The translations under genes and the position numbers were made by a program. Source: a bacterium (GTDB taxonomy: Bacteria > Patescibacteriota > Minisyncoccia > Phycocordibacterales > UBA5272). Taken from it: a stretch of DNA of 64,000 nt. Positions 12,145 through 33,476 of this stretch are shown here, one piece after another; position 1 is the stretch's first letter; every line of letters starts with the position of its first letter. Under the pieces are notes generated by a model that had not been told where the DNA came from, did no database searches, and saw only the letters and a list, made by a program, of their open reading frames with translations. The stretch lies in the NCBI GenBank assembly GCA_043719155.1, contig JAYSUJ010000024.1, forward strand, positions 3,424 to 67,423, in the 5' to 3' direction.

Positions 12145-12164
12145 AATTTTATTTAGTTTAGCAT

Positions 12165-12204: not shown

Positions 12205-12231
12205 CACTGACCCAACTTTAGCCCTTAAGCT

Positions 12232-13329: not shown

Positions 13330-13440
13330 TTTTTTCCCTTTCTGAGGGGGTTAATCCTGAGCCTATTTCTCAGGATTTTTATATTATACAATATAAATTG
13401 TAATTTGTAAAAAAATACTTTAAAATAGTTTTTTTTTACT

Positions 13441-14979: not shown

Positions 14980-14986
14980 CCTAGAA

Positions 14987-15017
14987 CTGTTGACGTTCAT
15001 AGCGTCAGCAGTTTTTT
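14987..15017 (+). terminator. Intrinsic terminator
   Basis: ctgttgacg-ttcatag-cgtcagcag forms a 9-bp stem with one G.U pair, followed by tttttt. Confidence 0.6.
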
Positions 15018-15028
15018 CTTTAATTTAC

Positions 15029-15050
15029 TTGGGGTGCCCAATGGGAATTG
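15029..15050. repeat. 22-bp direct repeat, the att-like left boundary; duplicates the 3' end of tRNA-His
   Basis: ttggggtgcccaatgggaattg is identical to 33396-33417. Confidence 0.75.
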
Positions 15051-15443
15051 GTCACGCATAAAATTTGTATTCACAATTTTTTGCGCTACCCCGACTCACT
15101 CGTTTCGGCTCGCTTTGCTCACATCGAAACTTCGCTCCGTCTTTCAATTCCCCTAAAACATACAAACAATTTTAAAACCCCACAAAGGGGGTCTTAAAAT
15201 TGTCTGGGTATCTAACGGTCCAGGAAATGAACACCCTTATATTGGATTTCAACCGTATAGGGACTATATTATCTGGTATTTTTCAGAAAAGTAACAGTAG
15301 CAAACTTCAATAATGACCACTAATCTAAAATTGATTGTTGAGTCTTTTGGAATTAACGATTTCTCCGGTTTTTAACTTTAATTTTTTGTATTTTTCTTTC
15401 GTAAACTACATCTTATTTTCAATTAGATTTGTTGTTCTTTGGA

Positions 15444-15872
15444 TTATTTCAGCGACTCTTCAAAATTAGTTTTAATTTCTGGGTTAACTTTTCTCAATTC
15501 CAAAATAAAACCTTTCAAGTCTGAATCGACTAGAAAAAATGGATATATATCATATAAAAACCTACTGCCATCTTTTTTTCTCACTTCTATATCCTCTTTG
15601 AACAGAGCAGGTCTTTTTACAACCAATGATATATCTTGAATATTTATATTTCTCTTGAAGAAGACATAATCTCGTATCAAAAAGTTACTACTAATAATTA
15701 ACTTTATTTGATTAAAGTATAAATACAAGATTACAAATAATGCGATAAAATACAGTATGTTTGTATAGTCTACATCTGCACCAAAGAAAAAAGAAATTAA
15801 AGCGGGAAAGCAGACTATTGTGAATAGAACCATAAGTCTAATAATTAAAAAATTAAGTTTGTATACTTTCAT
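15444..15872 (-). CDS. Putative toxin immunity protein, a 2-TM membrane protein; paralog of the upstream gene
   Basis: 142 aa with two N-terminal TM helices plus a cytoplasmic domain. C-terminal GFILELRKVNPEIKTN parallels EFLEFVEELKKYNPDIKIN of the neighbour. Confidence 0.55.
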   Translation of the reverse strand: MKVYKLNFLIIRLMVLFTIVCFPALISFFFGADVDYTNILYFIALFVILYLYFNQIKLIISSNFLIRDYVFFKRNINIQDISLVVKRPALFKEDIEVRKKDGSRFLYDIYPFFLVDSDLKGFILELRKVNPEIKTNFEESLK

Positions 15873-15926
15873 ATTATTTATTTAAGAAGTTATTAGACTC
15901 TACCCAATACAACACATTTGGATTAC

Positions 15927-16388
15927 CTACCATATCATATACTTTGCAACCCAAGAACCCCAATTTACGTTAATTTTAATGTCTGGATTATATTTTTTGA
16001 GTTCTTCAACAAATTCCAGGAATTCATTTTTTGAAGAAAAATAATTTGAGATTTGAGGAATTAGTATTTTTCCATTTTTATCAACTAGATTTAGAAATAC
16101 AATTACTGGCAGGACTTTAATTTCAAAAGAGCCAATGTCTATTACTTCGACCAACCTATCCTTAAATCCCTTTTTCTTATAAATTATCAATCTATTTTCA
16201 ATATCAAATTGTAGGAAACTAAACTTTTGAATTACCCAAGTTAGTGACACTATAAACAAAAAGAAGCCCGAGAAATATTCAACGGCACTCTGAGATATAC
16301 TTAACATCCAAATTGAAAATATAAAACAAAGAAGATACAATGCCACAACTGAAAGCCTAATGGAAAACTTATTATTAAGTACCTTCAT
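15927..16388 (-). CDS. Putative toxin immunity protein, a 2-TM membrane protein, immediately downstream of the RHS toxin
   Basis: 153 aa. Starts 2 nt after the RHS stop codon and shares the same architecture as the 15444..15872 paralog. Confidence 0.55.
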   Translation of the reverse strand: MKVLNNKFSIRLSVVALYLLCFIFSIWMLSISQSAVEYFSGFFLFIVSLTWVIQKFSFLQFDIENRLIIYKKKGFKDRLVEVIDIGSFEIKVLPVIVFLNLVDKNGKILIPQISNYFSSKNEFLEFVEELKKYNPDIKINVNWGSWVAKYMIW

Positions 16389-16390
16389 AA

Positions 16391-19300
16391 TTATTTTTTA
16401 TTTGATTTAATTTCTTGTATTTGAAATAATCCCCAGTCTAAATAATTAACACTTCCTACATTTGTAATCTGGTTTGTTTTAATATTGTTTCCATTAAAGT
16501 AATTGTTCATTATTAGTCCAGGAATATTTTGTATTGTCTCTTTTCTAATTTCATTTTGTGTTGCTACGCTTGTGATTTGCGAAATTAATTTTTCTGCTGG
16601 TCTTCCTAGGGTTGGTCCAATTAATTTACCAGCAACTGCACCACCAAATGCTGTTGCAAAAGCATCGGTGGTAATACTATTAGTAGAAATATTTTTATCT
16701 AATAGTGAATTTCCAACAGTTGAATCTATAACAGCACTGCCAACTCCTCCACCAACTGAACCAACAATTAACACTCCAGTTGCACCAAGTCCAGCCGCAG
16801 TAGCACCAGCCGCAGTAGCCGCTGCTGCACCAACTACAGCCACCCCTTTCCCCCCAGAATACATATAATCACCAAATGTAGACAAACTTCCATTTTGATA
16901 ATCATTAATTCCTTGCACTGCAACACCTCCAATAAATCCAATTCCAACCCCAATACACATTGGGCATTTACCATCAGGGTCATATTTATGAATTGGGTCA
17001 TTTACTGCATAAGAATACCCATTTTGAAGTTGGGGATTTTCAAGAAATATTTTTTTGTCTTCTCCCTCATAATTCTTTGGGTCAGGAGAAATAAAGATTC
17101 CATAATTACTAGAATTATAACGAGCATTCATATAAATCAAATTATTTTCTTTGTCCATTTGTTGATTAGTATACCCTCTATTCCCATTCGTCACACCTTG
17201 TTTTTCAACATTCCCAAAGGCTTTGTAAGAGGACGTTGATATTTCTGTTCCAATAGTGAAATCTAAAATCTTTTCAATACTGTTCAAATGGTCCGTCACA
17301 ATAGTTTGTATGGCGAGAGTGGAAGTGGGAGTGTAAATAGTTGAGGTAGAAGTTACAATAGTTGGAACAGAAGTGGTGGAGGTAATCCAAGATACTGTAG
17401 TAGTGGATACATTTACATTGGTAGTGGTAGTTGCATATTTTAGATTCTTTAGAGTGAATAAGTAGGAATCTAAAATGTAATAGTTATCTATGCTTGGAGT
17501 AGAGGTAGCAATACTGGAATTAATGGAGAGGGTAATGTCAGGAGTTTTAGGAAGTAAAATAATTTGAGTAGACTGATTAAAGTATTTCATTGTGCCACTG
17601 GCAGTACCACCTATGGTAAATGTAATTCCTTTACTAATTACTCCAGTTCCCTCGGTGATACTAGTAGTGTAAGATTTGTTGTTCTTGGCTCCGGCGAAGT
17701 AGAGGGTTAGGGTTTGGGTGGCGGTGGTTAGGCCTGTTAATTTAATAATATGATTTGAAGAAGTTGCACCGTTTTTACCTACGAAGTAATTTATTGTATT
17801 TGGCGTAATGGTAGCCGAAGACATTATCATAGAAGTGGTGCCAATACCCTTAAACTCGTCCCATTGTAGAGAGTTAATAGTAGTTTCTCGTAAACCTACC
17901 CACAATGATTTAGATACTGTAGAAGTGGATACTTTGTAGGTGGGAACCGTAATTGTTGCAGTTGTGTAAACCGCTGTGGTTGTGGCTACTTGAATGTATT
18001 GAGTAGAAGTGGAAACTGTTTGCGAAATAATATCTTTCCAAATTCTGTCTATGTTTAATATCGGTTTATTTCCTAAAGTTATTTGATAACTTGTGGTTGA
18101 ACCGGTGTTTTGGATAGATTGGTTTGGGGTGAATAATCTACTTTTAATTGTGGAACTAGAAGTGGTAGCAGTTATTTGGTTATTGTTAATCACAAAACTC
18201 AAAACCCTATTTCCCTCTGTGTCATAATAGTATTTGGAAGTAGTAGAAATATTCCCATTTACTTTTTTAATCTCTTTTACTCTGTCCAAATTATTCCACA
18301 CAAAGTCACCAAGCATTGTAGAACTTGCCAATCTCCCTTTGTTATCCCAGTTTAAATTATCACTAATATTTTCTTTTGCAACTTTACTTGGTGTGTGTGC
18401 TAGAGTATTTGCATACTCATAGTTATTTCCAGTATTAGACAATATTTTCCCAGTTGGTGAATAACTAAAAGTTTCCTCTACTTTTTTCATAACTTTATCT
18501 TCTTTCTCTACTTGAGTTAATCGAGATAATTCGTCATAAGTATAAATTGTATTTTCAAAACGATTATCTTCATCACGCAAAATACTTTTAATACGAGAAA
18601 GTGTGTCATAAGAGTAAGAAGTATTTTGTGGAGATTTGAAGTCACCAGTAGTGAACATATTAATTGTTCCATCTTTAAGTAGATAATAATACTTGGCATT
18701 TTTCTTCAATTTATTTCCAACATATCTAATTTCTTTTTGATTTACAGTAAATGTATCTATGGTTGTGGAAGCAATATTAGAAGATGCCGCGATATTGATT
18801 TGTCCAAAGTTTGAAGAGTTGGAAACATTGAATATCGGGTCTGGACAATTTACTGAACCTAAATCTGTATTGGTAATTGATTTACAGAATACAGTGTTGG
18901 TATTTCTATCTAACTTGTCACTTGTTTTGTAACTACTTGTTGCATACTCTGACCAGTCACCATTTATGTCACGACTACGAGTAAAGATTTCATAATCTGT
19001 GTTGTAAGAGAATGGAAACTTATCTACTAAGTATGAGGTAGAGGCAATGGAAGTGGTTGCCACAGTTTCTAATTGAATGAAGTTAGAGGTTGAAGTTGAA
19101 TTAGTTTTAGCCCGCAAGTAAACTTCATTTTCTATGATTGCATCTTTTTCAATGTCAGTATTTGCAACTGAAATATTGGCAACTAATCCTTGCCCCTGTT
19201 TATTTATAACCAAACTTGAAATAACTGGCTTGGTATTCGAGGCATTGTATTGAAGAGTTAAACCGGCGTGTATTTTGTAAGCGTTCTCTGCTCCCGTATC

Positions 19301-22300
19301 ACTTCGGTAATACAACTCTTGAAAATTGTGTGAGAAAGACAATGTGTTTTTAAGTTCTGGAGTTGAAGTCGCCAAAGTTATTTGTGCATTGGTTGCAGAG
19401 TGACCTGTCAAGATACACACTCCAATGTATGCCCCTGTTCCATTTACATAATCTGCTAAATAATTATTATTTACGTCCACTTTTAACCAAGTATTAGTAG
19501 CAATAGTGTTAAAGAATATTTTATCAGAGTAGGCAGTACCAGTGGCACATTGGTTATATGTCTGTCCACTGTCTGGCCATACTGGAACTCCCATACTTCC
19601 GTTTCTTTTAAAGAGTTGAATGTAACTGTTTTCATCGTTTATTTGATTAACTTTTTCTTTAACAAAGAAATTGTAATAGGCGTCAACTAAAGATGAGGTA
19701 GCAAGACCAGAACTTTTGTTGGTTGAAAATACTAGACCAGAGTCCAAAGTATTTAATGTTAAATTAGCGGGTATTACTATTTCTTCTCCAATAGGATTAG
19801 TTGTTCCAAAGAATTGTAGCAAATCAAGTGAAGTATCTCTATCTTGTCTACGCATATAGGTAGTATTTCTAATAGCATCGATAAAACTTTGGGCTGGTGA
19901 ACTTGGATATAGTATATACCCACCGATGTTAATTCCATTACTTTGAATTGTTCCGTAATAACTTTCTACCCCTTGTCTTGCTCTTACTTGGGTTATTTTT
20001 ATCGCATTAGCATAGGGGTGTAAAGTTTTTACTACTGATACATTGGTATATGGGTTTGTTGAATAAATATACTCCCCACTTGTTTTACTTACTTGTATTA
20101 AGTTTTCACCAGGTAAACCTTTTTCTCTAACTACCGATGCCGTAGATGTTGCAATATTGGTTGGCAACCCTACATAGTTTATATTTCCAAAGTCATAGGA
20201 GTTTTTACCCCCTATAAATGAAATTGTGTTGGAAATACGATTTAGATTTTTATCGTCATAAGTATTTTGAGTTCGAAGTATTCCTCTGTCATAAGCAACA
20301 ATTTGACCCAGCACATTGTATTCTGGGTTTTCAAATACTTTAGTAGTAGTTGAATAAAAATCACCAAAGAAAATAGATTTTATTTTTCCTTTTGCTAATT
20401 CATTAGTTGTAGTCGATACCCCGTCACCAGTGGTGATAATATTTCCCAGTAAATCATAGACAAAATATTGGGTTGATTTTGGTGACCAGATACTATTGTT
20501 GGTAACAGTTTCAATCTTATCAACTTCACCACTTCCGTTGTATGAATATTTTTTAACAATTCCGTCAGATGAACTTGCCACACATAATTTACCTAATCCG
20601 TTTGTACAAGAGTCGTAAATATATTCATTCAGCAAGTTATTTGTAACAATAATAGTAGTCGTAGCCACTGTTGAAGTTCCAATAATTATGTAAGTGGTAG
20701 TTGCAAAAGAAACAACTTCTGTATCAGTTGCTTTTCTACCAAGTAAGTCAAATGTAGTTTTAACTTTGTCCCCATTTGTAAATATACTTTCCACAAAGTC
20801 GTTAATTTCTCCATAACTGGTATTGGTATATGATGTAGATGTCCCTTTATTAGTTAACTCGTCATAAATTTTTCTGTTAGAGAAATCATAGCCAATATTT
20901 CTAATTGCATTTTCAGAATCTAGTATATTTACTAGATTCCCTAAAATATCATAGGTATATTTAGTGTTGTAAACTACTCCACTGTTATTTTCCACCACTT
21001 CTTTTATCAGTCCGTCTTTGTCATACACAAACCCTGTTTGATGATTGTTTTTATCAAACACGATTTTACTTCTAGCCCCATAATTTGCTTTGTCTGTTCC
21101 AAGCACGGTTTTAGTTTCTATCACTCTTCCAAAACTATCACGCACATAAGTCTTGTAATTGTAAACTGGTAAAGTTATTCCGTCACTTCTCCCAAGTGTG
21201 TAAGTAGTGTAAGGTAAACTTTCTTTAACAACATTCCCAACTTCGTCGTAGAAAGTGTCAGATGTAGAGTAATTGTTATTTACAGTTTCTGTTTTTGTTT
21301 TGATTACTTTCCCAAAGCCGTCAAAGTAGAACACTGAACTTAAAGTATCAGTTGCAGTAAAAAACTTTTTAACTGTTACATCTGGGAAATTAGCATCACT
21401 GTAAACTCTTTCCTCTAACAAATTGTTATTTTTCCAAGTTTTAACAGTCCTACCAAAGCCGTCATACTCCACTCTGTTTTCCAAATTATTTTGGTCAACA
21501 CTACGCTTTACTTTACTTGTATTGTAATCGTAAACAAAAGTATTTATTTGTCCTAAAGCATTAGTAGTTTTGATTGGGAATAACTTTTGCGTGTCATATT
21601 CAATAGTTGTGGTTGCACCTCTACTGTTCACTGTCAGTGTCGGCAACCCGAACACTATATCGTAAACAGTTTTTTCACTTTGCTTGGTCGTTGTTCCAGT
21701 GTAAGTATCTTTTTGAGTAAGTAGTCCACTTGAAATGGTAGAATCTAAATTATTGTCATAGAAATAATTTTCTTTTGCAAGTAAGTTACCATTTACATCT
21801 TTCAAAGTTTTAGAAGTGGGTAAATACTTTTTAGTTTGGGTTTGGGAATTGTTGTAAGATATTTCCAAAACTTTTGTGTCAGCAATATTTGTATCTGTAA
21901 TTGTTTGTGAAGAAGTTGTCACATCTCCATAACTAATTTCCTTTACCTTATTTAAGTTATTATCAAACATATATTCACTTGCAGTCGTAAATACAGCCCC
22001 ATTATTTTGGTCCACTACAGACGTATTATTTCTAACTGGAACAATTGCTGTTGAAGAAGCAGTCAGGGGGTTAAAGATTTCAGAGTATGAAATCAAATCT
22101 CTTTTTTCTAAAGAATTATTTTTGTTAAAAGTTTCTTGTTTGTAAAGTTTTCCTGTCTTACTTGCACTATCTTTTATCTCATCTACACTGTCACCGTTTC
22201 CTTGGTGATAGTAAGAGATTGTTTTCAACGAGTTGACCTCTATTGTAGTAACTTTTCCAAATCCAGCAAGGGTATTTTCGAAGTTCCCCTCACGAATTAT

Positions 22301-24583
22301 GGAGGCATCTTCATAAATATATTCACGAGCGGAAATCATTCCAGTTCCGTCCTTACTAATTTCTTTTTTGAGTGTCCAAACTGGATAGCCAATTTTATTG
22401 GCTCTGGTGCCGTCTGTTTTTTTATATGAACTTGCAGGTGCATATTCAAAACTAGATTCACCGCCTAAATTGTTTTTAATTCCAGTAAGTAAATCGGCTT
22501 TCATTTTAGAAGCGGTCACAGAGAAAGTATTTGAGGTATTGGGAGAGCGGGCAATGTCAGGTAAACCGTCACCATTTAAGTCAGCCGAAAAAGCAATTTG
22601 GTATTGTATTTGTTCTGCCTCTGTAAAACCGTCAAAGTTAAAGTCGGTGTAGAGGTTATCGTAAAAAGACATTCCGTTAAAAATGTGCGAGTAATATGAA
22701 ATTGGGAAATTGTATTGTGCGGAAGAAGTAGCGTCCAAAAGCACCATATCTTTTCCATTATTTAGCCAAATTTTTTTGTAAGTGTTATCTACAAAGCCAT
22801 TTATACCGACTGCTGACTCGTTTAATTTATATACATTTATCAAATCATCCAGTCCATCATTGTTAATATCCAGATATACAAATGAAGCGTCTATCATTGC
22901 ATCTCTGTTTTGTGAGAACCAACCAGTTGCTTTTAAGTCTGGGACTCTATCTCCGTCGAGGTTAGCAATTTTAAAACCATTTGGATAACTTGGAAAGTTG
23001 GATTGTTCCCAGAATAATGAAGTTGTGGCATAAGTTCTTTCAGTTGAACTGGCTACAACAACTTGTGTGGTAGTTCCCACAACAACTGTTGAGGTTGAAG
23101 TTTTAATAGTATCCTTGTAATTTATTCCCTTTATTCCTGCTCCCAAAACATCTACATTTCCGTCACTGTCATAGTCATAGAAAAAGTTATTAACAGGTTG
23201 ATTTATATTTACATAAGAGTGAAATTGAGAGAGGAAAAATGGTATTTCGGCTGTTGGCATTTCTCGACAATCATAACCTGGTTGAGAGTTAGTTTGGGGA
23301 TTACAATTAGTAGTTTTGTCTAACAAAACTTTTTCAGTAAAGGTAAAATCTCCATCGTTTAGATAAACTTTTTTAACTACACGGTGATTATTGTAATAAT
23401 CTCCAAAGAAAGTTTGGCGAGAATATACCAGGTCATTAAAACCGTCACCATTTATGTCTACGATTCGGTCAAAGTTGTCTTTGGGAATACCCAATGTTTT
23501 AGTTTCTGTTTGTGGTTGAGAGTAAGTAAAAACAGTTTCTGGTAAAGTGGTTTGTGTTCCATTTTCACCAAATGCAGATTCGATGATACCAGCAAGTAAA
23601 CTTCTTTTACCATTTACACCAAGTGAATATCTAAAAGCAAAATTCTTGGTTTTATTTCCGTTTACAAATACCTCTGTTCCAAACATTCTTTTATTGTTCT
23701 TTATCAAGTATCCAGTTTGATAACTTTCTAGTTGGTCAGGACGATTTTCAAATGTAAAACGGACTTCGTAAATACCGGGCTGATTTAAGTGATTCGTATA
23801 GAAAATACTTTGTGGGTATACAAAATTATCGTCTTTAGAGTAAGTATATTTTATGGAGTTTCCAAATACGTCAACTACCTCGGTTAAATACCAAGTGTGG
23901 ATTTCAGAGGTTGAAGATGCAGAGTTTATTCTACTTTCAGTATTTCCTCCATAAACGTATTTCATACCAGAATTATCTTTAACTTCCCAAGTGTCACCAA
24001 CACGAGTGAACTCACTGCGACCTGTGTCATTTTTCTTTGGAACAAAGATTTGAGAGGAGGTAGTCTTAACTAATTCTCCGTAGGTGTTTGAGGTAAAGTT
24101 TTCGTCTGTGTAGAGTTTAATTATTCCATTCTTGTTTACCCTTTGTATGTATGGAAGTGATAGGTCAAAACCAAACCCTACCCAGTTTTGATTATTTTCG
24201 TTTTGAGAGTTGTAGTTCACCGATATATCCGGAGTCATTCCATTTCTTCCCTCTGGAACTTTCAATTTGTAGTTATATTGCAGTGAGCCAGTATTACCCT
24301 CGCTCTTTGGTTTGTTAGGTGAGTCAATAGTAACACCGCTTGAGCCAGTGGTAGAATAGTCATAAAAGACTGGGGCAGAGAAAACATTATTTACTCCCAC
24401 ACAACCAATTAAAATACCCATTAAAATTAAATTTTTTAATGGGTTGGGGAAACCACTTGGAAAACTACTAGACGATTCTTGTCTACGCATATTATTGTTA
24501 TTTTTATTAAAATTACTCACTTTTAATGACTTTACTCTCATAAAGATACCCACATAATACCATAATCTGTAATACTTAAGCAA
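16391..24583 (-). CDS. Giant RHS/YD-repeat polymorphic toxin (Tc-toxin TcB/TcC-like) with a glycine-zipper-rich C-terminal toxin domain
   Basis: Signal/TM near the N-terminus. SpvB/FG-GAP-like repeats [56 protein letters not shown]. Many YD repeats ([25 protein letters not shown]...). The RHS core ends with a DPxG motif (...[12 protein letters not shown]), followed by about 200 aa: [19 protein letters not shown]...[34 protein letters not shown]... Confidence 0.85.
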
Positions 24584-24594
24584 ATATGCTTTTT

Positions 24595-24623
24595 TGACTT
24601 ATTTTAGGTGATTATGGTATATT
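24595..24623 (+). promoter_or_regulatory. Putative promoter for the 24742 gene
   Basis: TTGACT, then 17 nt, then TGgTATATT (an extended -10). Confidence 0.35.
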
Positions 24624-24741
24624 CTGCCAACTGGTTTACCAGTCTAGTTAGTTTTTTACTCTCAACTAATTAGGTGACTTTTTCAAATGCCACCAGGACG
24701 CTGGTGGTGTTTTGTTATGAGTAAAATGTTAGAATTAGATT

Positions 24742-25854
24742 ATGGATAATCTTGAGGCAACTTTATTAGAAAAAATGTTTTCAAAATTACGTAGAAGACT
24801 TTTATTATTCATATTCAGAAAAAGACTTGGTAAATCAAAGTTTGCAGCGAGTATTTTGTTTAGAATAATAAATACTTTAGAAACTAGTAAGGGAGTTTAC
24901 ATAAACACAAAAGATATCGGGAATACCGACCACTTTGTTCCTCAATTTTTACTACGTAATTTTAGTATAGAAAAAGCAGGTCAAAACAAAGGATTAATTT
25001 TTGAATATCTGTTTTCTAAAAATGTAATTAAAAAGAGCGGGATAAAATCTGTTGCTTGTAAAAAAGATTTATATACATTTAAAGATAAACTGGGTGAAAA
25101 GTCAGACTTCACTGAAAAAATTATTTATTCACAAAATTTGGAGTTATTCAGTGCGACAATTTTTCAAAGTATTGTGGACGACAATAAAACTTTCAAACTG
25201 ACCCCACTGGAAGAATCTACATTGGCAGTGTTTCTCTCTCACCAAATTACGAGAACACCTTATTTTCTAGACTCAATAAAAAAATTTGTGATTTATCTTT
25301 ATGAGAACGAAAAAATATTGTTTGAAGATTTCAACAAAATCGACTCGTTAGATTCAAAAATTATAAACAATGAATACAATGTATCTTATGAAGATATTGT
25401 CAGTTTTGTCCCGAGAATAAACTTTGACGGACTTCATAATCATTTAGGATTACTGTCGTTGAGAATTGCAACTAAGTTAGCCGAGGGAATATACAAGGGT
25501 TATCTTGAAATAATTGATATTAAAGAAACAGTCACAAAAAACTTTGTAATATCAGACAATCCGGTGGTATTGTTCGACCATAAACGAAAAGAAGTCTTGA
25601 AATTTCCTGCTTGGTGGGATTTAAGCAAAAAAGATATATTTATTTTCTTACCAATATCACCAAGTAAATGTATATTTTATTCCAAGTATGACACCAAACC
25701 TGGTTTTAAAGAATTAGAAGATAATCCCTTTATAGATTTAGTAAATTTTGGAAGTTATACAAACTGCACAAATTCAGTTTTTTCTAACAAAAAAAAGGTC
25801 CTGGAAACACATCTTGTAATGTATGAAAGTGAATTAAGAAATTATTTAACCTAA
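24742..25854 (+). CDS. Hypothetical protein, possibly DUF4238-like
   Basis: The N-terminal HFVPQFLLRNF resembles the H-x-V-P-x-F motif that I recall from DUF4238. That is a recollection, not a verified match. Confidence 0.35.
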   Translation: MDNLEATLLEKMFSKLRRRLLLFIFRKRLGKSKFAASILFRIINTLETSKGVYINTKDIGNTDHFVPQFLLRNFSIEKAGQNKGLIFEYLFSKNVIKKSGIKSVACKKDLYTFKDKLGEKSDFTEKIIYSQNLELFSATIFQSIVDDNKTFKLTPLEESTLAVFLSHQITRTPYFLDSIKKFVIYLYENEKILFEDFNKIDSLDSKIINNEYNVSYEDIVSFVPRINFDGLHNHLGLLSLRIATKLAEGIYKGYLEIIDIKETVTKNFVISDNPVVLFDHKRKEVLKFPAWWDLSKKDIFIFLPISPSKCIFYSKYDTKPGFKELEDNPFIDLVNFGSYTNCTNSVFSNKKKVLETHLVMYESELRNYLT

Positions 25855-26100
25855 TTTTTTGCACAAAAAATTGCGTGAAAAGTTTACTTGGTTATCCCCA
25901 TATTTCCGCAATTTTCCTATGGACCACATTACACAAATTTAGGTAATATGTCGACGAACCAGAGAGTTGTAATTTCCTATTTTATCTATGAACCACTTTT
26001 CGTTAAAAATTGCAAAAAATGTATATCCAGTAAGGGTTATTCTCTAATTTACGTTTTACCTTGCTACCAAACTCATACTGGTGACAAAAGTCGGCTCAAA

Positions 26101-26652
26101 TTACAGTTTTTTCTGTAAAAGTTTTGTAAATATTTTATGATTAGTTTTGCACTCTTTTAATTCCGGCAATAGCCCGATAAACTCTGGTATTTCAAAGTAA
26201 TTTAACGGCACTTTTTTGTCGTCAAAAAATTTAATCTTTTTCCCAGTCAGATGTTCCGGAAATATTATATTTGCAGTATCTTTTTCTTCATTTTGAAAGT
26301 CAAATACTAGATTTGGAACAAGAGTGTCCCAACTACGAAGTATTGGAGGGTCGGAACTAATTATTCTGTTTTTAACTTGGATAAAATGTTTACAAATTGC
26401 ATAAAAAGATTTAAGTTCTTGCCCCGCAACTATTTTAGGATTAGTTTTTGGGTCAAGTATGAAAAAGTTCAAATACCTAGATTTTAACTTTACGGGACTG
26501 TTTAATCCCTTGTGCGAGTCGCTGTAAAAAGTGTCCCAGAACCACAAAAAGGTAGGCCTGTCGTGTGTTGGTAGGAAATTAAGACATAACTTACTCCCCT
26601 GGTTAAAAACCAGGATTTTACCAAGAAGTTTTAAGTAGTCTGTGTTTTGCAT
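26101..26652 (-). CDS. Hypothetical protein
   Basis: ORF with start trimmed to the Met at 26652 to avoid overlapping the upstream gene. No motif recognised. Confidence 0.3.
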   Translation of the reverse strand: MQNTDYLKLLGKILVFNQGSKLCLNFLPTHDRPTFLWFWDTFYSDSHKGLNSPVKLKSRYLNFFILDPKTNPKIVAGQELKSFYAICKHFIQVKNRIISSDPPILRSWDTLVPNLVFDFQNEEKDTANIIFPEHLTGKKIKFFDDKKVPLNYFEIPEFIGLLPELKECKTNHKIFTKLLQKKL

Positions 26653-26684
26653 AAATTTTTTTAATAGTACTTTTTTATTTAGAT

Positions 26685-26963
26685 TTAAATTTCCACAGTT
26701 TCCAAAGTATCCAGTGCGTCGCCCATATCTTGGTATGTTCCCCAAGCCGAATCTTTTGCTTCCTCTATATTATCATTCGCCTGCTGTAGTGCTTCTTCAT
26801 AGTCTGATACACTTGTTTCCAAGTCCTCTACATCTGTTTCTAATGTGGAAATTTCACTCCATAATTCTAAATTTTTGTCACTTAAATTTGAATTACTTAT
26901 ATAAAACCATAAAGATATGATTATAATAGTAAATATACACAAAGTACTCTGATTGCTTCCCAT
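26685..26963 (-). CDS. Small membrane-anchored coiled-coil protein
   Basis: N-terminal TM (LCIFTIIIISLWFYI), then an acidic heptad-like SEISTLETDVEDLETSVSDYEEALQQANDNIEEAKD. Confidence 0.4.
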   Translation of the reverse strand: MGSNQSTLCIFTIIIISLWFYISNSNLSDKNLELWSEISTLETDVEDLETSVSDYEEALQQANDNIEEAKDSAWGTYQDMGDALDTLETVEI

Positions 26964-26971
26964 AACTATTT

Positions 26972-28060
26972 TTACCCAACTGCTTTTGTGATTAGTGCAA
27001 TTTTTGTATCGTCATTCAAAATACCGGTAGGAGAAAGCCCGTTATCACTTTGGAAGTTTTTTAAGGCTGTTTTAGTTGCTTTTCCGAAATAGCCAGTGAC
27101 TAGGGTATCTTTAGAAAGGAAACCTAGAAATTGCAGAACTTTCTGCAAAAGTTTTACATCGTCACCCCTTTGACCTAATTTTAAATCTCTATCAAATGAG
27201 ATTGAACTATATGTAGCCCCTGAAACTACCTCATTATTATTTACCTGTGTTTGAGTTGTGCTAACCGGCCTAACTGTAGAAAGAAAGCAAGATTTCTTGT
27301 CTGAAGTCCATTCATATCCTGTAGCACATCTACAACTAACATCATTTCCTTTTTTTGTCCCTGGTATTGCAAGTGAGTATGTTCCATAAGAATTTGAACA
27401 AGCGTTGTCTTGGGAAATACACGAACCGTTATGCAAAATTTCATAATCCGAGCATCTTATCTCTTCTATACATTTACTCCTGTCTGCACCAATTTTAAAA
27501 CCAGTTTTACACTGACATTTTAAAGTTGAGTCATCGTAGTAAGTTCCGTATCCGTGATTTTCTCTACAACTGTCGTCTTTACCTAAACACAGATTGCCTA
27601 GAGAGTTTTTTTGGTAGCCAGTATTACAGTAGAAACTATAACTACCATAGGCAGTTGAATTTGCTGGTGCTAACAAACAATTATCTCCACTCTTATAATA
27701 TCCTGAATTACAAAACAAAACACCATAAGATTTATACCCTCCAACAACATCTACACGAGAAGTTGCACTACTTCCAGTGTATGGAGAAATGTATAGACCT
27801 GGAAGATAGGTCGAAGTGTCATAATAGTTGTTTAAATAGGTACTTTCGCTTCCGCCGGCAGTTTCCCCTGTATACGGATTTGTGTTTCCGGGAAAACTAT
27901 AATTATTATATGGATTTCCGTCAGGACTTGAACGATAATATGAGGGTACATAAGTTCCGTTTGATTTCGTGTGGCCTTTCACATAGACATCAGCAAAAAC
28001 AGAAGTTAGAAGAATGAACGGTAAAATTAGGAGTAAAAAAAAGTTTTTTAATTTATACAT
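26972..28060 (-). CDS. Secreted Cys-rich repeat protein with a C-terminal peptidoglycan-binding (PG_binding_1-like) domain
   Basis: Signal peptide. Repeated C-x-x-GY...C modules (CNSGYYKSGDNCL, CNTGYQKNSLGNLCL, CQCKTGFKIGADRSKC, CRCATGYEWTSDKKSCF). The C-terminus LKLGQRGDDVKLLQKVLQFLGFL...GYFGKATKTALKNFQSDNGLSPTGILNDDTKIAL is PG-binding-like. Confidence 0.6.
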   Translation of the reverse strand: MYKLKNFFLLLILPFILLTSVFADVYVKGHTKSNGTYVPSYYRSSPDGNPYNNYSFPGNTNPYTGETAGGSESTYLNNYYDTSTYLPGLYISPYTGSSATSRVDVVGGYKSYGVLFCNSGYYKSGDNCLLAPANSTAYGSYSFYCNTGYQKNSLGNLCLGKDDSCRENHGYGTYYDDSTLKCQCKTGFKIGADRSKCIEEIRCSDYEILHNGSCISQDNACSNSYGTYSLAIPGTKKGNDVSCRCATGYEWTSDKKSCFLSTVRPVSTTQTQVNNNEVVSGATYSSISFDRDLKLGQRGDDVKLLQKVLQFLGFLSKDTLVTGYFGKATKTALKNFQSDNGLSPTGILNDDTKIALITKAVG

Positions 28061-28069
28061 AGAATTTAA

Positions 28070-28246
28070 TTATTTATACCAAGTCTTTACACCCTTGTGG
28101 TGAGAACAAGTCCCTCTATGGGAATTACTATAACTGTAAGTCCCGTCCCTACATTTAGCAGTTGGTGACTTTTTTGCATCAGTGAGAGATATCGTTGATA
28201 CAGAAATGAAAGCAACGACTAAAAACATTTGTGTTATTTTTTTCAT
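28070..28246 (-). CDS. DUF3761-like small secreted protein (58 aa); not in the ORF track
   Basis: MKKITQMFLVVAFISVSTISLTDAKKSPTAKCRDGTYSYSNSHRGTCSHHKGVKTWYK matches the C.DGT.S.S...RG.CS.H.GV pattern of DUF3761. Confidence 0.55.
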   Translation of the reverse strand: MKKITQMFLVVAFISVSTISLTDAKKSPTAKCRDGTYSYSNSHRGTCSHHKGVKTWYK

Positions 28247-28251
28247 ATTCT

Positions 28252-29211
28252 TTACTTAAACCAGTTGAAAATGTAATCTTTAAATCTTTTATAAACAGGA
28301 ACCCACTCCTCTTTTTTGTCTTCGATTTTTATTTCTTTAATTTCAGTAGGCAATTCTTTTTTCTCGTTGGGAACTAACTTTTCAATTTTCTCTACTGGAG
28401 TTGATGGGAGTGTTTCTTCTTTCGGGATTACTTTTTTAGTTGGTTTTGCGATAGGTGCAATTATTTTTGCAGGCGTTATCACTTCCTCTGTTTTTATTTC
28501 AACTTTTATGTTTTTTTGCTCTACCGATGTTATTTTCGGTTGAGTTTTTAATTCTACTTTTTCTGCGACAAATGGTTTTCCATTGGGATACTTTGCCTTG
28601 TAAAGTGCTTTTACTCTTAATGCAACACTCTCATTTCTAATATACATATTCTGATATAGATTATTTGCTTTTTCTGTGGATAATGAGTCCATTAGTTCAA
28701 ATAAAATTACAACCTTTTCTTGTGGATAATAGTTGTCTTTCGGTGTTGTTTTTTCTGCTTGGCTTGCTCTCAATTTGGCAATCTCTGCTTTCAATTCTGT
28801 AATTTGATTTTTATTTTGCTCTGTATTTTGTATTTGCGATTGGTGTAAAGCCTTTTGTTGGACCAAAGAATCTATTTGTGCTTGAAATTTTGCATCTATT
28901 TTTGCAGATAAAATATCATAGGCTGACTGAACAAAAGAGCCATTCTGTGCCATAGAACCTTTCAAATAGTTTTTTTCTATTTCCTTTTCTCTTTCTAATT
29001 CAGTTATCCTGTTTTCAATATCTAGTATAGAAATTCCAGGACTATTTTGAGATTGGTTTTCTAGTTTTCGTAATCTGTATTCCAAAGCCGATTTTTCTTC
29101 TTGTTGTTTAATGTAAACGTCGTCTGGTAGATAATTATAGTCGGTAGCAAAGGCACTTGTTTGTATTAAAAATACACTTAAAATCAAAAAAGTTATTATT
29201 TTATTTTTCAT
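28252..29211 (-). CDS. Secreted coiled-coil, Lys-rich protein
   Basis: Signal peptide, a long Q/E/K-rich coiled-coil segment, and a Lys/Pro-rich C-terminus. Confidence 0.45.
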   Translation of the reverse strand: MKNKIITFLILSVFLIQTSAFATDYNYLPDDVYIKQQEEKSALEYRLRKLENQSQNSPGISILDIENRITELEREKEIEKNYLKGSMAQNGSFVQSAYDILSAKIDAKFQAQIDSLVQQKALHQSQIQNTEQNKNQITELKAEIAKLRASQAEKTTPKDNYYPQEKVVILFELMDSLSTEKANNLYQNMYIRNESVALRVKALYKAKYPNGKPFVAEKVELKTQPKITSVEQKNIKVEIKTEEVITPAKIIAPIAKPTKKVIPKEETLPSTPVEKIEKLVPNEKKELPTEIKEIKIEDKKEEWVPVYKRFKDYIFNWFK

Positions 29212-29445
29212 ATTGTTTGTCGCGTTTTATTTTAAAGCCCTTTTCACACAAAAAACCTATCACTAGGAAAACCCGAGGGTTTACATACTCGTTTCCAAGT
29301 ATGACGCGACAAACGCCCTAATGATAGGCTCTTTACATTTGTCGCGTTTTTGACCATATCCCAAATCTTATTTGGGGGTTAGGTCTCCGATATTTTATCG
29401 TCTAAATAATTATATCACAATTTTAAAAAGTAAAATTGGAAAAAA

Positions 29446-29922
29446 TTATAAGGCTTCAATTTCCTGCTGAAAATTCAACCCCAGTATAGGCACCCCAAAC
29501 CCTTTCCCCTCACTTCCTGTAACTTCTGTCCTGTTAGAATACCCCTCCTTTTTACCTAGTCTTTCACAGATAAATTTAGCCGTGTCTTGTTTAACTTTGA
29601 GGATAGAAGAATCTATAACTTTAATGGCTTTACCGCTTTTATTGGTCCTAGTTATTTCATAAGGTAAATTCAAAATAGTTTCTAATATTCCCTCGGCTTT
29701 ACTCACAAAGTTCATTTTTCTTACTTTTTCACAGAACCACCCTGTATCAGTTATAGTTCTAGCGTAACTATCTTCATAGCCAGCACTAATTGCAGATTGA
29801 TAAGCATTTGCAAAGTTTAGTCCTTTTACATTAATATATTCCTCCCAACAGAGTTTCTGGCGAGGGTCTAAGAAGTATTGGTTGGCTCCGTTTGGGTTGG
29901 TGGTTTTAGATTTGGTCTTCAT
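29446..29922 (-). CDS. Phage terminase small subunit-like / HTH DNA-binding protein (tentative)
   Basis: NGANQYFLDPRQKLCWEEYINVKGLNFANAYQSAISAGYEDSYAR resembles small terminase N-termini. The similarity is weak. Confidence 0.3.
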   Translation of the reverse strand: MKTKSKTTNPNGANQYFLDPRQKLCWEEYINVKGLNFANAYQSAISAGYEDSYARTITDTGWFCEKVRKMNFVSKAEGILETILNLPYEITRTNKSGKAIKVIDSSILKVKQDTAKFICERLGKKEGYSNRTEVTGSEGKGFGVPILGLNFQQEIEAL

Positions 29923-29988
29923 AGGTTAATTGTAGCAAGGATTATTGTAGAAGCAAGACCGGAAAAATGCTATACTGTCGTCAGATTT

Positions 29989-31134
29989 ATGAATGCTACA
30001 CCTAGGTTAAACTTAGACCATCTTTTAAAAGAAATTCAAGAAAAATACCAATTACTTGGAAATTTAAATTATGCTGGTGAAAAATTTTTAAAAACCTATG
30101 CTGAATATTTGGATATTGCGGAGAAAATAGAGAAAACTAGTCAACTAGACGAAGTCCATAATTTTTCTTCCCCGAAATATTATATTTACATTGTGATAAT
30201 TACAACAGTGAAGACCATTTCGGATACGATTGAAGAATACATTAACACAGATACAAATGAACTCTCTACTTTAAAACTCCAACTTATTACGGCCTTGAAA
30301 AGTTTATCTCATTTGGAAATACAATCTGAACTTGAAAAAAGTAAATTTATAGAGGCGAAAAAACTTTTTTATAAATTTATGTCAGTAGCGAACAAAATTG
30401 TCCCAACAATAGACGAAGACCCAGATTTATTTAAAAATTTAGAAAAGATATATGAAAACTATGAGCCGAAGTTAATAATTTTAACAGAGGAAATTCAAAA
30501 GGCACAAGAATTTAATTTATACGGAAGTATTAAGAGTTTAGAGAAAACTACCTTTGGACTTTCTGACCCTTTGAAACTTTTAGCAGGGAAAAAGATTTTA
30601 AAAGAAGAATTAACAAACCCCAGGTTCAGTAAGAAAATGTTTATGGATTTGGTGGAACCGATTCAAAGAAAGATTGAGCCATTTATAATTTTACCAAATA
30701 ATTTTGTTGGTATAAAAAAATTGGAAATTTGTAAAGAAATATTAGATGTTTACCCAGACTTGAAATTAGTCTTTGAAGAAAAAACGAATTTGATAAAATT
30801 AGTTGGTATTAAAAAAATAGAAGAAATTATTTTAAGTTTAGAAAGTGACCAAACTACAATTGTGATAAAAAATGTCTTGGCAAGGCATAATTTGGAGCAA
30901 AATCTTAACGGTCTACTTACATCTTTTAAAAATAAATTCTTAGTTCAAAGCAAATCTTCCTTCAACAATGCAAATATGAAAAAGCAAGTTAAAAACATTG
31001 TAAGTGAAATTAACCGTAGTATCAAAGAAAAGAATGATTTTGATTTTATTTTGGTTTCTACAAAATCAGTTAAAAAAGACAGTAGTAAATTTATTTTGAG
31101 ATTTAATTTAGAGTTGGAAAAAACGGCTGGGTAG
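29989..31134 (+). CDS. Hypothetical protein
   Basis: ORF with start trimmed to the Met at 29989. Lys/Glu-rich. No motif. Confidence 0.3.
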   Translation: MNATPRLNLDHLLKEIQEKYQLLGNLNYAGEKFLKTYAEYLDIAEKIEKTSQLDEVHNFSSPKYYIYIVIITTVKTISDTIEEYINTDTNELSTLKLQLITALKSLSHLEIQSELEKSKFIEAKKLFYKFMSVANKIVPTIDEDPDLFKNLEKIYENYEPKLIILTEEIQKAQEFNLYGSIKSLEKTTFGLSDPLKLLAGKKILKEELTNPRFSKKMFMDLVEPIQRKIEPFIILPNNFVGIKKLEICKEILDVYPDLKLVFEEKTNLIKLVGIKKIEEIILSLESDQTTIVIKNVLARHNLEQNLNGLLTSFKNKFLVQSKSSFNNANMKKQVKNIVSEINRSIKEKNDFDFILVSTKSVKKDSSKFILRFNLELEKTAG

Positions 31135-31727
31135 GTGACATAAAAATTAAATAACAAAGAAGTCATATAAAATATGGCTTATTTTATATTTAAAATATGC
31201 TTGACAAGTTTTTGGCTGGACCAGTTTAATGGACACAGTTAAGTAATTAACTGAAACACATCGTCATAGAAACCATCTACGCAGGAAATTAGATGTAAAA
31301 CTTTTTCTATAATAATTATTAAGGTGCTAATGGGAAAGGCAAGAAAATGAGTTCAACCATCACAAATCTCTCACTTGCCCACTTGTTTAGCATCGTAATA
31401 ATTAATTGTGATATTGATGAGTTGCGTCTATGAAATATCACGAACTATGACTTTATATGGCTTGTTTCCTAATAAAATATAAGAGGAAACAAAGGCAAAA
31501 GGGTGGACTGCCTTAACTAAATATTAAAAAGGGTTTATACTAAATATGCTACACGAAAACGACCAATCAAATACAAAAAAATTGATACCAAAGGAGGGAC
31601 AACTTCGTATTTCGTGTAGCAATGAAGTATTAAAAAGTTGTCCCTCTTTTGATATTAACAATCAAGAGGAAGTTGAAACCGAAATTGCACAAAAATTATC
31701 AGCAATTTTATTTGATAAATATGTAAT

Positions 31728-33476
31728 ATGGAAACAAAAACAAAAAACTCATACCAATACGGAAGAGTAAGCACGCCCGAACAATTAACTTCTGGCGACA
31801 GTTTAACTCACCAAGATAAAGTGACAAAAAATGAAGCAATCAGAAGAGGTATAAACCCAACAAATTTTTATGGCGATACAATTTCCGGGTCTTCAATTAC
31901 CCGGGACGGTTACGACCAAATGTTTTTTGATTTAAAAAAAGCAAACAGTAAAATCCAAACAATATTCTACGTGATTATAAAATGTATTGACAGATACACA
32001 AGGGGTGGAGCAGAGTTCTATATAATGATGACGAACGATTTAAAAAAACTCAATGTTCAACTAATAGATGTGGCCGGGATAATCCAAGAAGAAAAAAATA
32101 GTTTGGAAGACAAAGGATTCACATACGAATGGAGTAAATACAGACCGAGCGAAACAGCAGAACTCATAGAAGCCCAAAAAGGTAAGGGTGAAAAACGAGA
32201 TATCTTAACTAGGACCATAGGGGCACAAATTTCTCTAACCCAAAAAGGTTTTCGTATGGGGAGTCCCCTTGATGGAATGAGAAGCGAAACACAACTAACT
32301 GACGGAAAAAATAGAATTGTATTTGTCAGAAAAGATGGATTTGTGCATTTTATAGAAAAGATTTTTGAAATGAGGGCAAGTGGTGTAAATTCAGATTTAG
32401 AAATTATTTCAACTTTGAATGCTATGGGATACAAATCCCCAATAAGAAATAGGTGGTCAAAAAATAGAGAGAAACATCTAGGCCAAACAGGCGGCGGACC
32501 TTTAGATTTGAAACGGCTAGAAAAAATCTACTCGAAAGTTGGATATTGTGGAATCTTACTCCATAAGTGGAATAAATATTTACCGATAAATGGTCAGATA
32601 GAAAAAATCATTTCTATTGAAGTCTATAACAAAGCAAACAAAGGAAAAAGATTTATTGTCGAAAACAGTGATGGAACTTACGAAATAAAAACAAATTACA
32701 ACCCAATTCAATCAAGGCCTAGATTAGAAAAAAATCCACTTTATCCGTACGCAAAAGTTGTTAAATGCCAATTCTGTGGTTTAGGCTTTAAATATAGCGC
32801 CGCAAAAGGAAAAAACAAAAAGAAGTCCAGTCCAGGATATCATTGTTCGTATAAACACGAATATTTTAGGAAGCCAAAAAAGGAGTTTGAAGATACCATA
32901 GAAAATTATTTGAAGTCGCTTTCTCTCACGGACGCTTTCGTTGAAAAAATGCAAAAAGAATTGGTCGATACTTTTTCAACTAAAAGTGGCGAACTAAAAA
33001 ATAAATTTGCAAAGATATTTGTAAATATTGCAGACCTTAAAGCCGAACAGGAAAAATACATTAGCGAATACATTGCTACCAATAATCCAATAATAAAAAG
33101 TTCTATTGAAAGTAAAATCAACAAAATTGAAGAGCAAATTAAAAATGCCACAGATGTTGGTGAGGAAAATGAGGTTGAAGAATTAAATGTTGACGAGTTT
33201 CTTGCTTACACCAGAAATTTTTTGAAAGACCCATCAAATCTTGTTTTGGAAGAAAAAACAAATGTTGATACAGTGGGTGTTCTATTCAGTCTTATATTTG
33301 AAGAAAAACCGACCTACAATAATATCTTGTATCGAACACCTAAATTAACCAGTGTTTTCAAGCACTTTTCTGCAAACAAACAACCAGAAAACCAATTGGG
33401 GTGCCCAATGGGAATTGAACCCATACTAGGGGATCCACAAACCCCTGTGATAACCATTTCACTATGGGCACCATAG
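31728..33476 (+). CDS. Large serine recombinase (integrase of the island); its 3' end reads through tRNA-His antisense
   Basis: The N-terminal YGRVSTPEQ is the resolvase/invertase catalytic serine motif. A recombinase domain follows, then a zinc-ribbon-like CQFCGLGFKY...HCSYKH and a C-terminal coiled coil. Confidence 0.8.
   Translation: METKTKNSYQYGRVSTPEQLTSGDSLTHQDKVTKNEAIRRGINPTNFYGDTISGSSITRDGYDQMFFDLKKANSKIQTIFYVIIKCIDRYTRGGAEFYIMMTNDLKKLNVQLIDVAGIIQEEKNSLEDKGFTYEWSKYRPSETAELIEAQKGKGEKRDILTRTIGAQISLTQKGFRMGSPLDGMRSETQLTDGKNRIVFVRKDGFVHFIEKIFEMRASGVNSDLEIISTLNAMGYKSPIRNRWSKNREKHLGQTGGGPLDLKRLEKIYSKVGYCGILLHKWNKYLPINGQIEKIISIEVYNKANKGKRFIVENSDGTYEIKTNYNPIQSRPRLEKNPLYPYAKVVKCQFCGLGFKYSAAKGKNKKKSSPGYHCSYKHEYFRKPKKEFEDTIENYLKSLSLTDAFVEKMQKELVDTFSTKSGELKNKFAKIFVNIADLKAEQEKYISEYIATNNPIIKSSIESKINKIEEQIKNATDVGEENEVEELNVDEFLAYTRNFLKDPSNLVLEEKTNVDTVGVLFSLIFEEKPTYNNILYRTPKLTSVFKHFSANKQPENQLGCPMGIEPILGDPQTPVITISLWAP
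33396..33417. repeat. 22-bp direct repeat, the att-like right boundary, inside tRNA-His
   Basis: Identical to 15029-15050. Confidence 0.75.
33397..33472 (-). tRNA. tRNA-His (anticodon GTG) with encoded G-1 and 3' CCA
   Basis: Manual fold on the minus strand. G-1 is followed by the acceptor GTGCCCA/TGGGCAC and a D-arm GTGA-AATGGTTA-TCAC. The anticodon loop is TT-GTG-GA, the T-arm ATGGG-TTCAATT-CCCAT, and the discriminator C pairs with G-1. Confidence 0.8.

Follow-up and report, generated by a model that had tools for sequence, protein, structure and literature searches.

Can a large serine recombinase (LSR) place a genomic island in a tRNA gene? The question is raised by a 64,000-nt stretch of contig JAYSUJ010000024.1 from a Patescibacteriota genome (hereafter the window), in which an intact tRNA-His gene overlaps an LSR gene at one end of an accessory segment and a copy of the tRNA 3′ end lies at the other. 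Positions 15029-33417 very probably constitute an integrated, non-viral genomic island inserted by this LSR, 18,367 bp long counting one copy of the repeated core. The island belongs to an element family of Patescibacteria (candidate phyla radiation, CPR) whose LSR is specialised for tRNA genes. What is new, and supported by the comparisons below, is a clade of LSRs in CPR bacteria that is devoted to tRNA targets, with the attachment site of the free element (attP) inside the integrase open reading frame (ORF) and the structured RNA LOOT on the element backbone.

The att repeat, tRNA-His and the serine recombinase

The ends of the island are defined by the 22-mer TTGGGGTGCCCAATGGGAATTG, which occurs at exactly two places in the window even when 3 mismatches are tolerated; none of 100 shuffles contained any match (0/100). 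No other perfect long direct repeat exists from 14.5 to 34 kb, and its two copies are spaced 18,367 bp start to start. The right copy comprises positions 56-76 of tRNA-His plus 1 downstream nt, and so contains part of the T-loop, the 3′ strand of the T-stem, the 3′ acceptor strand, the discriminator and CCA. The tRNA itself is intact, as called by ARAGORN (anticodon GTG, 33397-33471 on the minus strand) and Rfam (tRNA, 62 bits), and its sequence reveals an encoded G-1 at 33472, a discriminator C73, an encoded CCA and the acceptor stem GTGCCCA/TGGGCAC. The locus thus has the layout of a tRNA-integrating island, with an intact tRNA at one boundary, its 3′ part repeated in direct orientation at the other and the integrase gene at the tRNA-proximal end, where the LSR overlaps tRNA-His. 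The boundary features are as follows.

14983-15015: intrinsic-terminator-like hairpin with a T-run, on the host side just left of the attL core
15029-15050 (no strand assigned): attL core, the putative displaced original 3′ fragment of tRNA-His (56-76 + 1 nt); exact 22-mer
31728-33476 (+): large serine recombinase with a Resolvase domain, 582 aa integrated and 566 aa in the predicted excised form; the ORF crosses the att core and the antisense tRNA-His
33396-33417 (no strand assigned): attR core, the putative element-supplied 3′ end of the regenerated tRNA-His; exact 22-mer
33397-33472 (-): tRNA-His(GTG), intact, with encoded G-1 and CCA; proposed integration target (ARAGORN, Rfam, sequence reading)

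A first-pass annotation of this DNA had already reported the pair of 22-mers, placed the right copy in an intact minus-strand tRNA-His and the left copy just past a terminator, and read the two as attR and attL. The mismatch-tolerant scan with its shuffles, the ARAGORN and Rfam calls and the T-run hairpin bear out each of these placements. The attL/attR reading survives testing and is strengthened by the family survey described below, in which 61 of 87 loci have an LSR-antisense-tRNA junction and three further islands carry tRNA-derived repeats. The GC content of the island, described there as similar to that of the host, is in fact somewhat lower (33.0% versus 36.1% for the rest of the window) and falls under that of every same-size window to the right.

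The annotated serine recombinase just inside the tRNA-proximal boundary is likewise present, as a 582-aa ORF with the motif YGRVSTPEQ and a Resolvase domain (PF00239, E = 1.6e-8). Its matches to Recombinase (PF07508, E = 0.008) and Zn_ribbon_recom (PF13408, E = 0.009) are weak, PF07508 being found in many of its homologues. Two homologue alignments, of 11 and 41 sequences, show little or no variation at R13, S15, D88, R89 and R92; the Cys/His positions C347, C350, H372, C373 and H377 are conserved there as well. The protein thus combines an N-terminal resolvase-type catalytic domain, with serine nucleophile and Arg/Asp, with a C-terminal recombinase domain and a zinc ribbon with embedded coiled coil, although the sequence matches of this C-terminal part are weak. 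An AlphaFold2 model (mean pLDDT 84.8) has long helices at 402-481, and Foldseek aligns it with full-length solved serine-integrase/att complexes, including PhiC31 and Bxb1, over 563-634 columns (E = 1e-12 to 1e-15). In a sequence-profile search of the PDB the catalytic domain alone found matches, in TP901-1 integrase and TnpX, and phmmer against 1.84 billion representative proteins returned 662 relatives, 183 of them at E <= 1e-30. Because of the conserved residues, the profile match of the catalytic domain, the full-length Foldseek alignment and the small number of phmmer relatives, the window recombinase is a genuine but remote LSR.

The LSR reading frame does not end within the island: it crosses the att core and the whole antisense tRNA, to a stop at 33474-33476. 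Joining the right end to the left end in silico, as in an excised circle, yields an ORF that stops three codons past the core (...NQLGCPMGI-GHA*, 566 aa), while the integrated form ends in ...GI-EPILGDPQTPVITISLWAP* (582 aa), so that a 3-aa tail is exchanged for one of 19 aa that is predicted to be disordered. With the core and the antisense tRNA both inside the frame, attP is predicted to be within the integrase gene, at its 3′ end. Since residues 552-582 are predicted to be disordered (pLDDT ~40 in the AlphaFold2 model), the tail swap is most simply a by-product of this position of attP; a regulatory role is possible. The first-pass annotation had overlooked this run of the frame across core and tRNA, along with the LOOT RNA and the weakness of a match to the terminase small subunit.

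tRNA targets across the LSR clade

The arrangement at tRNA-His is widely shared. Our family survey comprised 87 homologue loci drawn from a protein database, the encoding contigs, and metagenome and viral contigs (~1.15 Mb of loci, numbered L below), and at 61 of these the LSR ORF overlaps, at its 3′ end, with an antisense tRNA. The 58 complete LSR-tRNA junctions, the window included, are with tRNA-Glu (34), tRNA-Trp (11), tRNA-His (7), tRNA-Arg (5) and tRNA-Gln (1); 4 more are cut by contig ends. At 55 of the 58 the T-loop is read in one common frame, which gives the LSR tail the motif G[IVFL]EP, and such motifs recur in the tails of many representative proteins. The reading of the serine recombinase as the integrase, put forward in the first-pass annotation, is upheld by this family-wide junction and by the LSR fold.

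Both ends are present in three further islands: L061 (tRNA-Glu, 16-bp core, 5.3 kb), L069 (tRNA-His, 15-bp core, 9.5 kb) and L060 (tRNA-Glu, 1 mismatch in the core, ~10.8 kb). Shuffled-query controls gave zero matches for their attL copies. These come from the 36 loci whose upstream sequence reached 3 kb or more, so that attL was found in 3 of 36, with flanks of 10 kb and most islands longer than that. In all four islands (the window, L060, L061 and L069) attP overlaps the 3′ end of the LSR gene, and the block of identity stops in the T-loop and starts at or near the tRNA 3′ end; the crossover would therefore fall between the T-loop and the tRNA 3′ end. An identity block with these limits reportedly corresponds to the T-loop sublocation class of Williams 2002.

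In L011, from another genome, a different element with an LSR 39% identical to that of the window and with DUF4238 and DUF3761 cargo occupies the syntenic tRNA-His / tRNA-Leu / L19 locus, which is partial support for a sporadic distribution. In L061 the displaced attL fragment (4945-4960) has no CCA, whereas the regenerated tRNA-Glu (10202-10219) has one; judged by these two sequences, the tRNA gene seems to have been without CCA at first and to have gained an encoded one from the element.

Some relatives differ in their surroundings. The closest homologues, in L003 (10001-11689), L004 (5107-6825) and L005-L007, part from the window exactly after the core TTGGGGT and have no tRNA nearby. The L004 element, seen in four samples, encodes a Toprim primase-like protein and a PemK toxin, has a weak match to a Phage_CRI-type Rep, and may be a free plasmid-like form or the user of a different target. 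A sister LSR subfamily is marked by a Trp-rich C-terminal extension (..SWNTIxxTIxxW..); its members are never beside a tRNA and lack LOOT.

Members of the sister Trp-rich subfamily: L021, L025, L027, L028, L032-L034, L036, L043, L051, L054, L070, L077, L088; protein P0010

LOOT RNA, cargo and other island features

Between the LSR module and the cargo lies a copy of LOOT, at the following position.

29268-29385 (-): LOOT RNA (Rfam RF03000), structured RNA on the element backbone, heading the cargo operon; full length, 74.4 bits against a gathering threshold of 46.4

To our knowledge, LOOT has had no assigned function or genomic context. Its name presumably refers to the lineages OD1, OP11 and TM7, and the motif reportedly stems from the candidate structured RNAs of Weinberg et al. 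2017. Rfam also finds it in L009 (7242-7360), L011 (5023-5144), L061 (7320-7438) and L069 (8544-8660). A covariance model built from the five LOOT copies and run over the 1.15 Mb of loci recovered 21 copies, in the window and 20 other LSR loci (a DNA pattern recovers just 5 of these 21). Each of the 21 is found on the island side of its LSR, at 0.4-8.5 kb upstream; since that side makes up 57% of the surveyed sequence, P is ~1e-5. All are within tRNA-type loci, bar one locus cut by a contig end. Across the copies 94% of cells are paired and 23 of 25 pairs have compensatory changes, values that 0 of 500 shuffles match; together with the score above the gathering threshold, this covariation-backed structure identifies the RNA as LOOT.

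The gene directly downstream of LOOT is non-homologous from locus to locus. Because of this variation, LOOT marks the border between the conserved LSR module and the variable cargo. The same variation rules out a riboswitch-like tie of LOOT to one gene family. A literature search found no report linking LOOT to mobile elements, and the main text of Weinberg et al. 2017 is silent on LOOT.

The remaining features of the island, from left to right, are these.

15137-15150 (+): conserved left-end motif CCGTCTTTCAATTC, an inverted copy of the T-loop portion of the target (GGGAATTGAAA); pattern CCGKCTTTCRATTC
15163-15206 (-): terminator-like hairpin downstream of the minus-strand cargo genes, a 19-pair stem then a T-run; equivalents in L061 and L060
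15444-15872 (-): 142-aa membrane protein, candidate immunity protein 2; no family match, role suggested by its position downstream of RHS
15927-16388 (-): 153-aa membrane protein, candidate immunity protein 1, starting 3 nt past the RHS stop; no family match, putative role
16391-24583 (-): RHS polymorphic toxin of up to 2730 aa; past the RHS core, its C-terminal domain is glycine-rich and hydrophobic
24742-25854 (+): DUF4238 protein (PF14022, E = 7.4e-28); a DUF4238 gene likewise in L011
26101-26745 (-): 214-aa ORF; no family match
26685-26963 (-): 92-aa membrane-anchored coiled-coil protein; weak spanin-like and coiled-coil matches only
26972-28060 (-): 362-aa secreted Cys-rich protein with C-terminal PG_binding_1 (PF01471, E = 1.2e-16)
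28070-28246 (-): DUF3761 small secreted protein (PF12587, E = 1.9e-14); also in L011
28252-29211 (-): 319-aa secreted coiled-coil protein, first gene downstream of LOOT
29446-29922 (-): 158-aa protein with an N-terminal helix-turn-helix (HTH) of the terminase-small-subunit (TerS) type; phrog_51, E = 1.3e-3, residues 9-57 only; no Pfam or NCBIfam match
29989-31134 (+): 381-aa ORFan; related elements have replication-type genes at this position
31546-31770 (+): conserved 74-aa ORF overlapping the LSR start; candidate recombination directionality factor (RDF) or regulator

In the ~1.15 Mb of loci the pattern CCGKCTTTCRATTC occurs only in the window, in L060 (908-921) and in L061 (5042-5055), always at 80-110 bp from attL on the inner side; the base at its R position covaries with that in the tRNA T-loop. 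The motif may be an accessory site for the recombinase or an RDF. We also considered the conserved block at the left end as a structured RNA and rejected it, having found no convincing consensus fold (-2.5 kcal/mol) and no Rfam match.

At the other end of the island, homologues of the 74-aa ORF (motif ..LSxILFDKYvxWK) lie directly upstream of the LSR in L003, L004, L008, L009 and L011. Inside the ORF, 70-145 nt upstream of the LSR start codon, is a hairpin with a 24-bp stem (31582-31658, +), which is kept with compensatory changes in L003, L004 and L008. Because this hairpin overlaps the N-terminal half of the ORF, the half that is missing in more distant homologues, that part of the region may be a regulatory structure rather than coding sequence.

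The cargo proper is accessory, as the first-pass annotation had it. The RHS protein has an N-terminal SpvB match (E = 2.2e-15) and an RHS core (TIGR03696, aa 2453-2538, 51 bits against a cut-off of 32.5), followed by a ~190-aa glycine-rich, hydrophobic extension (16391-17000); the core plus variable C-terminus places it among the RHS polymorphic toxins, and the two ORFs downstream would be its immunity genes. The composition of the extension suggests a putative membrane-targeting toxin domain. The two small membrane ORFs look paralogous, and L003 opens with a gene resembling the C-terminal region of the window RHS protein. The PG_binding_1, DUF3761 and DUF4238 matches listed above complete the accessory set; the minimal island L061 likewise has a secreted peptidoglycan (PG)-binding protein, in its case directly after the LOOT RNA. 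The terminase-small-subunit-like protein of the first-pass annotation fares less well: the phrog_51 match exists, but is weak and confined to residues 9-57, and the 158-aa protein is, on its HTH, a probable DNA-binding regulator or RDF candidate. The 381-aa ORF has no family match, and its sole homologue among 5.8 billion proteins is itself. Scans with Pfam, PHROGs, NCBIfam and PADLOC found no recognisable tyrosine integrase, virion, conjugation or replication gene in the island, and PADLOC gave no defence match for the island proteins.

Outside the island, the window has a GC-rich stretch at ~12000-14000 (GC up to 0.47 against a background of ~0.35), where two overlapping ORFs, 12232-13329 (-) and 12580-13410 (+), have no Pfam match and the sequence no Rfam match at the gathering threshold.

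Competing explanations, proposed integration route and known systems

Weak matches in the cargo invite a reading of the island as a prophage or phage satellite, similar to the phage-inducible chromosomal islands (PICI), with the LSR as phage integrase and the TerS-like, PG-binding and spanin-like genes as remnants of packaging and lysis. Phage satellites typically combine an integrase, a regulator and TerS, and the island offers counterparts in the phrog_51 match (E = 1.3e-3), the endolysin PG-binding domains and an Rz-like spanin (7.6e-5); two LSR homologues, moreover, are on IMG/VR contigs. We nevertheless regard this origin as very unlikely. No capsid, portal, large terminase, tail or replication gene is recognised in the island by PHROGs, Pfam or NCBIfam, so that it does not classify as a prophage or satellite; the TerS match spans only an HTH of ~49 residues, no catalytic lysin domain accompanies PG_binding_1, and both IMG/VR loci fall in the non-tRNA subfamily without LOOT. 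Across the family, the 142 island-side ORFs are mainly restriction-modification, helicase and defence genes, with a few AAA_25, TrwB-like and Replic_Relax, and no virion family is among their 25 most frequent Pfam families. Because the cargo is free of virion families and dominated by restriction-modification and defence, the family elements are integrative, possibly mobilisable, islands and not prophages. A separate matter is whether the repeat stems from another recombinase, for instance a tyrosine integrase since lost, or whether the tRNA 3′ end was duplicated locally, with the LSR a bystander resolvase or invertase. Such an origin would fit the tyrosine integrases behind nearly all known tRNA-gene islands (PMC7192596), but the island has no tyrosine recombinase, the att core is inside the LSR ORF, and an LSR-tRNA junction at 61 of 87 loci, with five tRNA specificities and fixed spacing and frame, is inexplicable for a bystander. 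The survey effectively refutes this reading, and we give it almost no credence.

The identical 22-bp cores, the intact LSR ORF with all its conserved catalytic and zinc-binding residues, and the intact accessory small ORF, LOOT RNA and left-end motif make it improbable that the island is a fixed fossil, which entered by LSR integration and has since lost its mobility while the LSR gene was merely kept. Such a history would account for the lack of an excised form or empty site in any searched collection, for the absence of transfer genes and for the altered C-terminus of the integrated LSR; that altered tail, however, is predicted to be disordered and lies outside the conserved domains. Because the repeats are perfect and the machinery is intact, the island may well still be mobile.

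Several observations weigh against LSR-driven integration at this site. Recombination by members of the clade is at this point a prediction. The searched collections, which contain no close relative of the genome, yielded neither an empty site nor an excised circle or attP junction. Metagenome and viral collections do not contain the 22-mer, and among GTDB genomes it occurs in one other species only, where the left side is not syntenic. For the left-flank cation-efflux gene, homologues are at most 72% identical, the nearest about 70%, and not syntenic. Neither the predicted 566-aa excised form of the window LSR, whose absence counts here, nor that of the L061 LSR is among 15 billion proteins. 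The two closest LSR homologues, P0002 and P0003 (79% and 75% identical), have no adjoining tRNA, and the island has no recognisable transfer or replication genes that would provide a route between cells.

Some further details belong to these searches. The exact left-flank protein has no database record, and the right-flank protein is found in the same genome only. P0002 and P0003 may be free or plasmid forms with attP, but they have no tRNA-like core past TTGGGGT, no terminal overlap and no informative repeat. The other species with the 22-mer is a Candidatus Magasanikiibacteriota metagenome-assembled genome (L002, JAUSEN010000016.1), which has it at the tRNA-His 3′ end; with its non-syntenic left flank it was rejected as an empty-site comparator. 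L002 has copies at 7832-7853 and 7931-7952, one of them degenerate at 21 nt (one G missing) and 78 bp from the tRNA-His, with two small hairpins between; in sequence it looks like an old scar of integration or deletion at the same site. In the nearest relatives (~70% amino acid identity) a variable defence hot spot lies downstream of the cation-efflux gene (L094, 11015-18842; L096/L097, 11068-20996), not syntenic with the window. Its genes are of the MmeI-type restriction-modification, Schlafen-like and GIY-YIG kinds, and bAvd is paired there with a reverse transcriptase in a way that resembles a diversity-generating retroelement.

On our preferred reading, integration by the LSR, the free circle would carry attP in the last LSR codons, with the conserved 3′ coding sequence as P arm, the 22-bp core as a copy of tRNA-His 56-76, and a P′ arm that begins GTCACGCATAA, its TAA closing the 566-aa ORF. 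LSR dimers bound to attP and to the tRNA-His gene (attB) would synapse and cleave both sites at a central dinucleotide located somewhere from the T-loop to the 3′ end; rotation and religation would follow. The element copy of the 3′ segment would thereby restore a functional tRNA-His (attR), and the original 3′ fragment would stay at attL. As a by-product, the integrated LSR ORF would continue through the antisense tRNA, its -GHA replaced by the disordered 19-aa tail. Excision would require an RDF; candidates for this role are the conserved 74-aa ORF that precedes the LSR gene and the 158-aa HTH protein. The predicted junctions are:

attB: ...CAGTTTTTTCTTTAATTTAC-TTGGGGTGCCCAATGGGAATTG-AACCCATACTAGGGG...
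attP: ...CAACCAGAAAACCAA-TTGGGGTGCCCAATGGGAATTG-GTCACGCATAAAATTTG...

LSRs need only a matching central dinucleotide, and the 15-22 bp of attP/attB identity seen here is much longer; for this reason it is best explained by selection to regenerate the tRNA. A more far-reaching model is conceivable, although we think it doubtful as a whole: a CPR-wide LSR clade would use the T-loop-to-3′-end segment of tRNAs of at least five specificities as attB, its attP would be part of the LSR 3′ coding end, so that the C-terminal tail would report the integration state (566 versus 582 aa), LOOT would be a dedicated regulatory RNA (acting perhaps in immunity or maintenance, or switching the cargo operon), and the inverted T-loop-like motif near attL would control directionality. 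If true, this would be a new self-contained integration module with an RNA component.

Universally conserved tRNA segments as natural attB sites could also be of practical use. Serine integrases are the preferred unidirectional tools of genome engineering, and such sites could give them ready-made landing pads, including in CPR bacteria, which are currently without genetic tools. Islands of this kind are also vehicles on which CPR bacteria exchange RHS toxins, restriction-modification and defence cargo.

How does the element compare with known systems? It shares with the tRNA islands of the Islander/TIGER type an intact, integrase-proximal tRNA, a displaced 3′ fragment at the far end, a target regenerated by the element copy, and accessory cargo. 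Those islands normally have tyrosine integrases, for which tRNA genes are the classic landing sites; here the integrase is an LSR, and a whole serine-integrase clade in CPR hosts has five tRNA specificities in a fixed geometry. With PhiC31, Bxb1, TP901-1, A118 and SprA the window LSR has in common the resolvase catalytic domain, the recombinase domain and the zinc ribbon plus long coiled coil, and an RDF is expected. It is very remote from them in sequence, its catalytic domain alone matching PDB sequences, and it differs from PhiC31-type LSRs in targeting a tRNA gene rather than a protein-coding gene and in having attP embedded in the integrase ORF.

A position of attP inside the integrase gene is found in the tyrosine-integrase systems of Mx8 (Myxococcus phage, intP/tRNA-Asp) and Sulfolobus SSV1. 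In Mx8, as in the window LSR, integration alters the 3′ end of the integrase; in SSV1 the integrase gene is split in two, whereas the window LSR swaps only a short disordered tail. The target of the phiRSM-type filamentous phages is a tRNA-Ser, and there too a serine recombinase is used for integration, but it is a small resolvase-type enzyme without the C-terminal domains of an LSR and has no tie to LOOT or CPR hosts. The phiRSM enzyme is cited as a site-specific integrase in the survey of Mageeney et al. 2020 (PMC7192596), in which t(m)RNA genes were the targets of 14 of 297 serine-integrase elements versus 1333 of 2998 (44.5%) tyrosine-integrase elements. The rarity that the first-pass annotation had ascribed to serine-recombinase tRNA islands agrees with these counts. 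The same authors call serine integrases "not known for targeting tRNA genes" and such use "not reported previously", with proof needed (PMC7192596). The few computational cases have awaited that proof, and the clade described here makes the question directly testable. Prochlorococcus tycheposons and related cryptic elements are likewise islands with site-specific integrases, but LSRs are a small minority among them (27 of 937), a tRNA-dedicated clade was not shown there, and they have no LOOT or CPR link (bioRxiv 10.1101/2020.12.28.424599). As for LOOT, the window copy matches RF03000 over its full length, well above the gathering score and with strong covariation. What differs is that all 21 copies stand on the island side of their LSR/tRNA loci, within the element, a placement that gives this orphan RNA a genomic context as a mobile-element RNA.

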